In this document: positions 18,719 to 19,740 of the stretch, in pieces
Numbering within the stretch: position 1 is the first letter of the stretch
Layout: each line of letters opens with the position of its first letter
DNA from: Escherichia phage ECO07P2
Reading direction: 5' to 3' (one strand)
Sequence record: OP172785
Length of the DNA: 64,000 nucleotides
The notes under the pieces: generated by a model
What the model was told of the DNA's origin: nothing
Seen by the model: the letters and a program-made list of their open reading frames with translations, nothing else
The model's database searches: none
Position numbers and translations under genes: made by a program

Positions 18719-18794
18719 TGGTCGAGGCAGTAGGGATCGAACCTACGACCTAGGACTTAGAAGGTCCTTGCTCTTCCTTCTGAGCTATGCCCCG
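18719..18794 (-). tRNA. tRNA-Arg (anticodon UCU), CCA encoded
   Basis: hand-folded cloverleaf on minus strand; anticodon loop CUUCUAA; GGTTCGATCC T-arm. Confidence 0.8.
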
Positions 18795-18798
18795 TAAT

Positions 18799-18874
18799 TG
18801 GGGTGACCGATGGGAGTCGAACCCATGACTACGAGAATCACAATCTCGAGTTCTACCAACTGAACTACGGCCAC
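18799..18874 (-). tRNA. tRNA-His (anticodon GUG) with extra 5-prime G
   Basis: anticodon arm CGAGA-UUGUGAU-UCUCG; G-1 pairs with C73; T-arm GGGTTCGACTCCC. Confidence 0.7.
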
Positions 18875-18988
18875 ATTAATATCTACTCCAACAATCAAGA
18901 TGTCTTCACACGAAATTAAGAGAAGAGTGATCAGTTCAACCCCGATAATCGCGTCAAGTAGATATTAATGTGACAGTTGTCACAAATT

Positions 18989-19063
18989 TGGCGGACGTGA
19001 TAGGATTCGAACCTATAACCAATCGCTTAACAGGCGATCGCTCTGCCATTGAGCTACACATCC
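18989..19063 (-). tRNA. tRNA-Asn (anticodon GUU)
   Basis: anticodon arm ATCGC-CUGUUAA-GCGAT; T-arm ATAGG-TTCGAAT-CCTAT. Confidence 0.7.
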
Positions 19064-19067
19064 AAAT

Positions 19068-19154
19068 TGGTGGGGAGTGATGGAGTCGAACCACCCGAGT
19101 CGCAATGACAATGGATTTACAGTCCACACCGCTACCTCTACGGGATAACTCCCC
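19068..19154 (-). tRNA. tRNA-Tyr (anticodon GUA), long variable arm
   Basis: acceptor GGGGAGT/ACTCCCC; anticodon loop CUGUAAA; class II length 87 nt. Confidence 0.65.
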
Positions 19155-19167
19155 TTAATTCTTAATT

Positions 19168-19242
19168 TGGTGGCCCTGGGTGGAATTGAACCACCATCTG
19201 GCGATTATGAGTCGCTTGCTTGAACCTTCCAGCTACAGGGCC
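19168..19242 (-). tRNA. tRNA with CAU anticodon (T4 tRNA-Ile-like; Met by anticodon alone)
   Basis: anticodon loop CUCAUAA; adjacent to tRNA-Thr as the T4 Thr-Ile pair. Confidence 0.65.
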
Positions 19243-19243
19243 T

Positions 19244-19319
19244 TGGTGCTGATTGACGGAATCGAACCGCCGACCTTCTCATTACAAGTGAGTTGCTCTA
19301 CCTACTGAGCTAAATCAGC
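19244..19319 (-). tRNA. tRNA-Thr (anticodon UGU)
   Basis: acceptor GCTGATT/AATCAGC; anticodon loop CUUGUAA; T-arm GGCGG-TTCGATT-CCGTC. Confidence 0.75.
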
Positions 19320-19324
19320 AAAAC

Positions 19325-19414
19325 TGGCGGAGGCGATAGGATTTGAACCTATGAGTCGCCGGAGCGACTGCCGGTTTTCAAGACCGGTGCATTAAACCAC
19401 TCTGCCACGCCTCC
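19325..19414 (-). tRNA. tRNA-Ser (anticodon UGA), long variable arm
   Basis: anticodon arm CCGGT-CUUGAAA-ACCGG; 90 nt class II. Confidence 0.75.
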
Positions 19415-19416
19415 AG

Positions 19417-19490
19417 TCTCCATACAAGGATTTGAACCTTGGACCTCCTGATCCCAAATCAGGCGCTCTACCAAACTGAGCTACACGGAG
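19417..19490 (-). tRNA. tRNA-Pro (anticodon UGG), CCA not encoded
   Basis: anticodon arm CCTGA-UUUGGGA-TCAGG; only 2 nt from tRNA-Ser 5-prime end (dimeric precursor as in T4). Confidence 0.75.
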
Positions 19491-19500
19491 TAAATTAAAT

Positions 19501-19574
19501 TGGAGCGGATAATGAGAATCGAACTCACATCATCAGATTGGAAGTCTGAGGTAATGCCATTATACGATATCCGC
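19501..19574 (-). tRNA. tRNA-Gly (anticodon UCC)
   Basis: anticodon arm TCAGA-CUUCCAA-TCTGA; sequence matches recalled T4 tRNA-Gly. Confidence 0.8.
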
Positions 19575-19579
19575 AAATT

Positions 19580-19666
19580 TGGTGCGAGAAGTGGGACTCG
19601 AACCCACAAGGAAATCATTCCGCAGCATTTTAAGTGCTGTGCCTTTACCAATTTGACCATTCTCGC
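19580..19666 (-). tRNA. tRNA-Leu (anticodon UAA), long variable arm
   Basis: anticodon arm CAGCA-CUUAAAA-TGCTG; 87 nt. Confidence 0.75.
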
Positions 19667-19667
19667 G

Positions 19668-19740
19668 CTGGGAATAAAGGACTCGAACCTTTGCATCCTG
19701 GAATCAAAATCCAGTGCCTTACCAACTTGGCTAATTCCCA
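19668..19740 (-). tRNA. tRNA-Gln (anticodon UUG), CCA not encoded
   Basis: acceptor TGGGAAT/ATTCCCA; anticodon arm CTGGA-UUUUGAU-TCCAG; 1 nt from tRNA-Leu (Gln-Leu dimeric precursor). Confidence 0.75.

Follow-up and report, generated by a model that had tools for sequence, protein, structure and literature searches.

The transfer RNA (tRNA) regions of the T-even phages T4 and T2L have been described in some detail. In T4 the genes run in the order Gln-Leu-Gly-Pro-Ser-Thr-Ile-segB-Arg-rnaD-rnaC. Under laboratory conditions T4 can do without its tRNA region (Brok-Volchanskaya et al., 2008; PMC2330249). The homologous region of T2L lacks segB and carries tRNA-Met(CAU), -Tyr, -Asn and -Arg together with two open reading frames (ORFs), and the preferred cleavage site of SegB lies within its tRNA-Asn gene (PMC2330249). 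This site consists of the core GGTTCRANTCC followed by CCAR, and it is unlike the site in the tRNA-Ser gene at G6, A16, G18, A26 and A27. When T4 and T2L co-infect the same host, segB is inherited at a frequency near 100% and ∼1250 bp of T2L markers are lost (PMC2330249). Here we analysed the tRNA array at 18719-19740 in a 64,000-nucleotide stretch of Escherichia phage ECO07P2 (sequence record OP172785), called the window below. From its gene content and sequence matches the window can be assigned to a Tequatrovirus (T4-like) phage, and we hold with high confidence that the array is an ordinary tRNA/stable-RNA operon of a segB-less, T2-type member of this genus. Ten of its tRNAs would make up the published T2L-like set, i.e., Gln, Leu, Gly, Pro, Ser, Thr, Ile2(CAU), Tyr, Asn and Arg. 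The eleventh tRNA, His, appears to have arrived with a structured leader RNA of ∼100 nt, as a module common to other T4-like genera.

ARAGORN was run on the whole window and found exactly eleven tRNA genes, all of them on the minus strand (Table 1). The Rfam tRNA covariance model recovered these eleven genes, each with a score over its 29-bit gathering threshold: 74.1 bits for Asn, 65.1 bits for His, 30.2 bits for Tyr, and 59-73 bits for the remaining eight. The anticodons from ARAGORN agree with those of the initial annotation, and no score fell under the threshold for the three tRNAs (His, Asn, and Tyr) described there as lying outside the T4 set; T4 indeed encodes only Gln, Leu, Gly, Pro, Ser, Thr, Ile, and Arg. 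We next read the junctions between the genes from the sequence. The discriminator G of Gln is followed by one C before Leu begins, the discriminator A of Pro is followed by CU before Ser begins, and the encoded CCA of Thr is followed by a single A before the CAU-anticodon tRNA, which agrees with the T4-like spacing of 1-2 nt claimed for these three pairs. An encoded CCA is present on nine tRNAs and missing only from Gln and Pro, again as claimed. The grouping of His, Asn and Tyr as neighbours stands in part: all three lie between the CAU tRNA and Arg, and Tyr and Asn are 4 nt apart, whereas His is separated from Asn by a gap of 114 nt (18875-18988). By analogy with T4, the tRNAs, the small ORF, rnaD and rnaC would be co-transcribed up to the terminator and excised by host RNase P and 3'-processing enzymes, with Gln-Leu, Pro-Ser, and Thr-Ile2 passing through dimeric precursors and the host adding CCA to Gln and Pro. 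The prerequisites of dimeric processing and host CCA addition, i.e., the 1-2 nt spacing and the CCA missing on Gln and Pro, are seen in the DNA itself.

The array was compared with that of T4. The genes Gln through Thr stand in the same order with 88-100% identity per gene, the dimer spacing is alike, Gln and Pro are without CCA in both phages, and rnaD, rnaC, and the terminator are conserved. The T-even gene order Gln-Leu-Gly-Pro-Ser-Thr-(CAU tRNA), then rnaD and rnaC, is found here with near-identical sequences. The T-even location is found as well: the array lies between the trna.2-57B-57A-gene 1 block and e.8 with the e-region genes, and homologues of trna.2 and e.8 were located by similarity to T4 (Table 1). 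The window ORFs upstream of the array we take to be 57B, 57A, and gene 1. The differences from T4 are the following. In T4 segB occupies the place of the window's Tyr, Asn, spacer, and His; the T4 tRNA-Ile and tRNA-Arg are other genes, with 63 and 64% identity to the CAU tRNA and the Arg of the window, respectively; and no ORF lies between Arg and rnaD. The T4 tRNA-Ser (ending in G-TAA) and tRNA-Ile have no encoded CCA, whereas the Ser and CAU tRNAs of the window do (19325-19327 and 19168-19170), so that less dependence on host 3'-end repair or CCA addition would be expected than in T4. The anticodon arm of tRNA-Gln (19698-19714, minus strand) also differs: at three stem pairs both bases are exchanged so that pairing is kept, and the loop has U at positions 32 and 38 where T4 has C (UUUUGAU versus CUUUGAC in T4). 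This change could be the result of allele exchange, or of selection on the anticodon arm. Since the CAU tRNA through Arg, plus the 116-aa ORF, all differ from T4, the comparison argues for replacement of the whole stretch and not for the addition of three genes.

T2L shares with the window the genome position of the array and the absence of segB; a tblastn search with T4 SegB as the query gave no match in the whole window at E<=10. The T2L markers (CAU tRNA, Tyr, Asn, and Arg) are all in the window, as are the tRNA genes cut by SegB (Gln, Leu, Gly, Pro, and Ser), in the order found in the T2-type phages Lutter and REP3. A small ORF follows Arg, tRNA-Ser has an encoded CCAG, and tRNA-Asn carries the preferred SegB site (Table 1), as judged from a 27-bp site that we reconstructed from the text of the T2L paper and not from its figure (PMC2330249). 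One difference was noted: the text of that paper names no tRNA-His, whereas the window and ∼190 relatives have spacer plus His between Asn and Arg. We concluded that the window allele is, as far as its gene content and SegB site tell, of the segB-less T2L type and a predicted SegB homing target. The locus is a known battleground of homing endonucleases, and with the preferred SegB site present in tRNA-Asn, the Ile2-to-Arg segment is expected to be replaced when a segB+ phage such as T4 infects the same cell. The third T-even phage, T6, has a tRNA-Tyr that is 98% identical to the one in the window. It differs in having 7 tRNAs, without Pro, Ser, Asn, and His, and in having segB directly after Tyr, where the window has Asn. 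As the window has no segB, SegB-driven amplification in cis, as in T6, would not be open to this phage.

The distribution of the array among related phages was examined next. The locus is 99.5% identical to that of Shigella phage A2 and 99.2% identical to those of ESh26 and SH7, and all 11 tRNAs are present in those arrays. Matches were found in 975 phage records, 258 of which cover at least 80% of 18600-19900, and the Tyr-Asn-spacer-His-Arg block occurs in 186 records. GenBank entries such as that of ESh26 already annotate the same eleven tRNAs, and hundreds of Tequatrovirus genomes have annotated arrays of ten or eleven tRNAs; judged by these records the array is an already known and ordinary feature. 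The array finding as it was stated in the initial annotation is therefore not new: the relation of the T2L-type region to segB was published in 2008, and the role of tRNA-Tyr in defence in 2026. The Lutter array runs CAU-Tyr-Asn-Arg, without the spacer and without His. REP3 has the spacer but has lost His by deletion, and the Arg that comes next is of a third kind. The arrays of Karamvirus, Jiaodavirus, and Gelderlandvirus have spacer and His between Gln and Ser, with no Tyr-Asn adjoining. Because Tyr-Asn is found without His (Lutter), the spacer without His (REP3), and spacer plus His without adjoining Tyr-Asn (the other genera), the extra genes make up at least two modules. On this distribution, Tyr-Asn is best assigned to the published segB-less T2L-type allele, and spacer plus His to a separate module common to Karamvirus, Jiaodavirus, and Gelderlandvirus.

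Two further observations concern the history of such arrays. In Lutter an HNH endonuclease gene stands in place of tRNA-Gln and a 160-aa ORF in place of tRNA-Thr; this arrangement is more evidence of array remodelling by endonuclease genes. The phage tRNA-Tyr has 95.6% identity to copies in unrelated Vequintavirinae (rV5-like) phages and only 60% to E. coli tyrU, and relatives at 78-91% identity were found in several other phage families, the matches including FelixO1-like, T5-like, Cronobacter, and Klebsiella phages. This pattern points to a single phage-borne tRNA-Tyr lineage that may move horizontally.

The CAU tRNA is labelled Met by ARAGORN by default. We rejected this label, as the best E. 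coli matches are tRNA-Ile: in 5,424 of 5,426 complete E. coli genomes the best match is a RefSeq tRNA-Ile, with ∼80% identity over the full length. The copies in Lutter and REP3 are 100% identical to the one in the window. The E. coli example that was fetched has an identical 19-nt anticodon arm (AGCGACTCATAATCGCCAG) and has the GGCCC/GGGCC acceptor pairs C4-G69 and C5-G68 in common with the phage gene. These two pairs are reportedly determinants for the lysidine synthetase TilS, a result attributed to Ikeuchi and co-workers in 2005. Its CAU anticodon, the pairs C4-G69 and C5-G68, and an anticodon arm of the Ile2 type make a tRNA-Ile2 of the lysidine type, a decoder of AUA, the best reading of the gene, with lysidine formation and charging with Ile predicted. 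It would do the same job as the T4 tRNA-Ile from a different gene. The fetched E. coli match (EC1 chromosome) lies in a tRNA-Ile/Arg/Arg cluster adjoining a DNA methyltransferase gene, and the cluster is probably part of a lambdoid prophage.

To assess codon supply, we compared 75 non-overlapping window ORFs (18,243 codons), chosen mechanically, with 42 annotated E. coli K-12 genes (14,790 codons) from one 50-kb sample. The codons that the array reads are the ones with the greatest phage excess over E. coli: AGA 8.7-fold (read by Arg), ATA 5.4-fold (Ile2), ACA 3.7-fold (Thr), TCA 3.6-fold (Ser), GGA 3.4-fold (Gly), AAT 3.0-fold (Asn), TTA 2.9-fold (Leu), TAT 2.4-fold (Tyr), CCA 1.8-fold (Pro), and CAA 1.5-fold (Gln). 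Among the amino acids, Tyr ranks first (1.70-fold) and Asn third (1.50-fold) in enrichment. The counts support a classical codon-supply role for ten of the eleven tRNAs, His excepted; most of the array reads A/U-ending codons, which are far commoner in the AT-rich phage than in E. coli. His is the most depleted amino acid (0.58-fold) and its codons are not enriched (CAT 0.91-fold, CAC 0.26-fold), so translational tuning does not explain tRNA-His, the sole member of the array for which codon demand gives no explanation. The proposal that the extra tRNAs tune translation thus fits Tyr and Asn and does not account for His. Presence of a tRNA and enrichment of its amino acid do not always go together in these ORFs: Lys is enriched 1.58-fold though the array has no tRNA-Lys, and His is depleted though tRNA-His is present.

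The extra tRNAs had also been proposed to replace host tRNAs depleted by anticodon nucleases. For tRNA-Tyr, a related role has been published. Septu cleaves tRNA-Tyr in the variable arm and over-expression of the T6 tRNA-Tyr rescues infection; T6 escapes Septu via an amplified tRNA-Tyr gene, and a deletion of the tRNA-rich region makes T6 more sensitive to Septu (Chihara et al., 2026; PMC13096335). Retron-Eco7 likewise cleaves tRNA-Tyr in the variable arm, and an anti-retron role has been described for the phage tRNA-Tyr of T5 (PMC11555353). Given its identity to the T6 gene, the tRNA-Tyr of the window may additionally buffer the phage against defences that cleave host tRNA-Tyr. Septu cuts the phage tRNA-Tyr too, so the benefit would be one of dosage and not of resistance (PMC13096335). 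Phage tRNAs have been proposed to carry an anticodon-loop escape signature (PMC10264068). In the phage His, Asn, and Tyr every anticodon-loop position agrees with E. coli hisR, asnT, and tyrU, respectively, so there is no such signature in these three genes, and we rejected escape mutations in their loops. The replacement proposal is retained for Tyr, by way of the T6 homologue.

Two other explanations of the array have to be weighed against an ordinary T2-type operon. The array could be the canonical T4 set with a single inserted His-Asn-Tyr cassette, as the initial annotation had it, serving mainly to make up for host tRNAs that anticodon nucleases destroy. The three extra tRNAs do sit between the CAU tRNA and Arg, all of them have G34-U35 anticodons, the class cleaved by colicin E5 (discussed for phage tRNAs in PMC10264068), and the anti-Septu and anti-retron roles of tRNA-Tyr have been demonstrated in T6 and T5. 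However, the flanking CAU tRNA and Arg are themselves non-T4 alleles, Tyr-Asn and spacer-His are distributed differently, the three anticodon loops match those of the host, Septu cleaves the phage tRNA-Tyr as well, and no His- or Asn-targeting nuclease is known to be tied to these phages. The documented direction of exchange is also the opposite one: in the published crosses the T2L-type allele gives way to the one with segB, and this favours loss in T4 and other segB+ phages over insertion here (PMC2330249). We consider a single inserted cassette quite unlikely, and the difference from T4 is better described as a homing-endonuclease-associated allele replacement than as a three-gene insertion. 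It is somewhat less unlikely, though still improbable, that the extra tRNA genes, His especially, are neutral passengers shuffled by homing endonucleases and by recombination at conserved T-arm sequences. The mosaicism of these arrays is extreme, with Arg(UCU) genes of three kinds, gains or losses of Gln, Thr, or His between relatives, and HNH or segB genes inside arrays; the region is dispensable in the laboratory (PMC2330249), and tRNA-His is not needed on codon-usage grounds. Neutral drift fits poorly, however, with eleven intact cloverleaves that all score above the Rfam threshold, with a tRNA-His that keeps C73, GUG, and CCA and in which stem variants across genera have changed on both sides, the T and anticodon stems staying paired, with compensatory evolution in the adjoining spacer (see below), and with the greater Septu sensitivity of the T6 mutant deleted for its tRNA-rich region (PMC13096335).

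An ordinary T2-type operon, the explanation we prefer, also has points against it. The score of tRNA-Tyr is barely above the threshold (30.2 versus 29 bits) because of its weak D stem; the boundaries of the transcription unit and the precursor structure are taken over from T4 and would hold here by analogy; the codon comparison draws on a single E. coli sample and on mechanically chosen ORFs, and His codons run counter to its trend; and the His gene has no G-1, an identity element for E. coli HisRS, as described next, which puts the function of this gene in doubt. Since the T4 tRNA region is non-essential in the laboratory, any benefit of the array would be conditional (PMC2330249).

Position -1 of the phage tRNA-His (18875) is a T (attaat before GTGGCCG), and C73, the GUG anticodon, and the CCA end are intact. 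E. coli hisR encodes a G at this position (tgtagt before GGTGGCTA), and G-1 and C73 are the major identity elements of bacterial histidyl-tRNA synthetase (HisRS) (PMC9976931). Measured against a canonical bacterial tRNA-His, the phage gene thus has the GUG anticodon, C73, and the cloverleaf, and has no encoded G-1 opposite C73. We also tried a register in which the first G of the His gene becomes G-1; reading of the sequence showed that it breaks the D arm and the CCA end, and it was rejected. T at -1 was seen in every T4-like copy examined. Among further tRNA-His genes sampled from viral contigs, most have G at this position, and T recurs in three other large-phage contigs. We found nothing specific in the literature on phage tRNA-His without G-1.

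The 114-nt gap between Asn and His contains no ORF, no ARAGORN tRNA call, and no Rfam match at E<=10, and it folds better than shuffled sequence (z = -3.45). It holds a four-helix element (Table 1) made up of a 14-bp P1, a P2-P3 arm, and a P4 hairpin with the loop UCUUGAU, conserved as UC(U/A)UGAU. This spacer RNA beside tRNA-His is the only unannotated item of the array. The element is present in 355 phage records, which comprise Tequatrovirus, Karamvirus, Jiaodavirus, and Gelderlandvirus plus one Vequintavirinae phage, W70, and it is annotated in none of them. A search with a 25-nt degenerate spacer pattern gave 0 loci in 185,579 bacterial and archaeal genomes, 6 loci in IMG/VR, and 19 in metagenomes; about one third of the metagenome matches were unrelated chance matches, and the true ones brought little diversity. 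The four-helix structure was then tested for covariation on ten distinct sequences, with pairing partners slid by 1-3 columns as controls. In the proposed structure 96.7% of cells are paired, nine pairs have changed on both sides (0-4 in the slid controls), and the covariation score is 0.347 (<=0.134 in the controls). A covariance model based on this structure gave 88-112 bits for the tRNA strand and 17-21 bits for its complement; the fold is strand-specific because of G-U pairs, which points to RNA. The model also found a distant member at 42 bits in another T4-like contig, with P1 and P2 fully compensated, and no extra copies elsewhere in the window or in T4 or T6. Wherever a lineage has tRNA-His, position -1 of this tRNA is exactly where the 3' strand of P1 stops, and in W70 the element lies 10 nt before tRNA-Gln. 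The two His-less copies (REP3 and one related sequence) have mismatches or a 1-nt deletion at the base of P1, which is weak evidence, from two related sequences, that the constraint on the spacer may relax after loss of His.

The gap might not be a gene at all but the remnant of a tRNA, a promoter, or a site that acts as DNA, for instance the target of an endonuclease. It sits in a tRNA array, where pseudo-tRNAs occur, it holds a TTGACG hexamer, and none of the 355 records annotates it. The lack of a tRNA-model match at E<=10 and of an ARAGORN call argues against a decayed tRNA, and we rejected this candidate together with that of a known RNA family. The promoter was rejected as well: the sole scan match in the gap (18977-19006) lies on the plus strand and does not exceed what shuffled sequence gives, none was found on the minus strand, and the Hyena and PKO111 types do not keep the TTGACG hexamer. 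The paired cells, the double-sided pair changes, and the strand-specific scores given above also oppose a gap without a gene, which we regard as very unlikely.

A parallel to this arrangement is found in phage T5. In the T5 record (GenBank NC_005859) tRNA-His is 78 nt long and starts with a T before GTGGCTA, i.e., the T is counted in the tRNA. Directly against it lies 'rnaIII, stable RNA with unknown functions', which is 106 nt long and closed by a 12-bp stem. Together with rna1 and rnaI, two further annotated stable RNAs, rnaIII forms a tandem of three immediately upstream of tRNA-His. T5 and the window are thus alike in that a structured RNA, whose long closing stem reaches up to the tRNA, adjoins the 5' side of a tRNA-His with T at -1, and they differ in the arrangement of the inner helices. 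Homology of the spacer to T5 RNA III was rejected: at the T5 locus the covariance model reached 8.1 bits (E 8.3), nhmmer gave no match there, and pairwise alignment was uninformative. The resemblance is one of position and architecture, a positional analogy and not demonstrated homology. Small structured RNAs next to tRNA-His recur in unrelated coliphages.

The most economical reading of the spacer is that of a small stable-RNA gene excised by the tRNA-processing machinery, with the phage tRNA-His maturing with a non-G 5' end. The spacer RNA could steer the 5' cleavage in such a way that HisRS meets a tRNA with the extra U-1, in line with what the T5 annotation implies for T5 tRNA-His; alternatively, it might act as an independent stable decoy or regulatory RNA. 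It is possible, though on balance doubtful, that the element represents an undescribed family of small structured RNAs of ∼98 nt, found only in enterobacterial T4-like tRNA arrays and one rV5-like phage, which could be coupled to tRNA-His maturation or act independently. The covarying spacer RNA and the missing G-1 are modest but concrete leads on phage tRNA maturation and charging in E. coli, and they bear on the role of 'stable RNAs of unknown function' in phage tRNA clusters.

Table 1. Features of the tRNA array and its surroundings, in window coordinates.
Feature	Position	Strand	Evidence and remarks
trna.2 homologue	19838-20125		96.5% identity to T4
tRNA-Gln(UUG)	19667-19740	minus	ARAGORN, Rfam 67.4 bits; CCA not encoded; identical to T4 outside the anticodon arm
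tRNA-Leu(UAA)	19580-19666	minus	ARAGORN, Rfam; CCA encoded; 100% identity to T4
tRNA-Gly(UCC)	19501-19574	minus	ARAGORN, Rfam; CCA encoded; 99% identity to T4
tRNA-Pro(UGG)	19416-19490	minus	ARAGORN, Rfam; CCA not encoded
tRNA-Ser(UGA), class II	19325-19414	minus	ARAGORN, Rfam; CCA encoded
tRNA-Thr(UGU)	19244-19319	minus	ARAGORN, Rfam; CCA encoded; 1 nt from CAU tRNA
CAU-anticodon tRNA	19168-19242	minus	ARAGORN, Rfam; CCA encoded; best read as tRNA-Ile2
tRNA-Tyr(GUA), class II, weak D stem	19068-19154	minus	ARAGORN, Rfam
tRNA-Asn(GUU)	18989-19063	minus	ARAGORN, Rfam
Preferred SegB site, 27-mer in tRNA-Asn	18987-19013	minus	exact match including core, CCAR, and five Asn-type positions
Small hairpin GTGACAACTGTCAC	18970-18983	minus	just upstream of spacer element
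Unannotated four-helix RNA element	18875-18972	minus	fold, covariation, covariance model
tRNA-His(GUG), C73, encoded CCA	18799-18874	minus	ARAGORN, Rfam; T at -1
tRNA-Arg(UCU)	18719-18794	minus	ARAGORN, Rfam; 99% identity to the Arg of Lutter
116-aa ORF, phrog_3355	18352-18702	minus	between Arg and rnaD; absent from T4 here
rnaD homologue (T4 species 2 stable RNA)	18236-18352	minus	89% identity
rnaC homologue (T4 species 1 stable RNA)	18091-18229	minus	97.8% identity
Terminator-like hairpin and T run	18017-18040	minus	downstream of rnaC homologue; conserved with T4
157-aa ORF, phrog_2280	17493-17966	minus	between rnaC and e.8; absent from T4 here
e.8 homologue	16990-17253		97% identity to T4

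Downstream of the array, the rnaD and rnaC homologues (18091-18352) matched no Rfam family at gathering score, and they are left unannotated in related GenBank records. The two ORFs had no Pfam match and fell only into PHROGs of unknown function. The terminator-like hairpin is the probable end of the tRNA/stable-RNA transcription unit, and the stop codon of the 116-aa ORF touches the start of the rnaD homologue.

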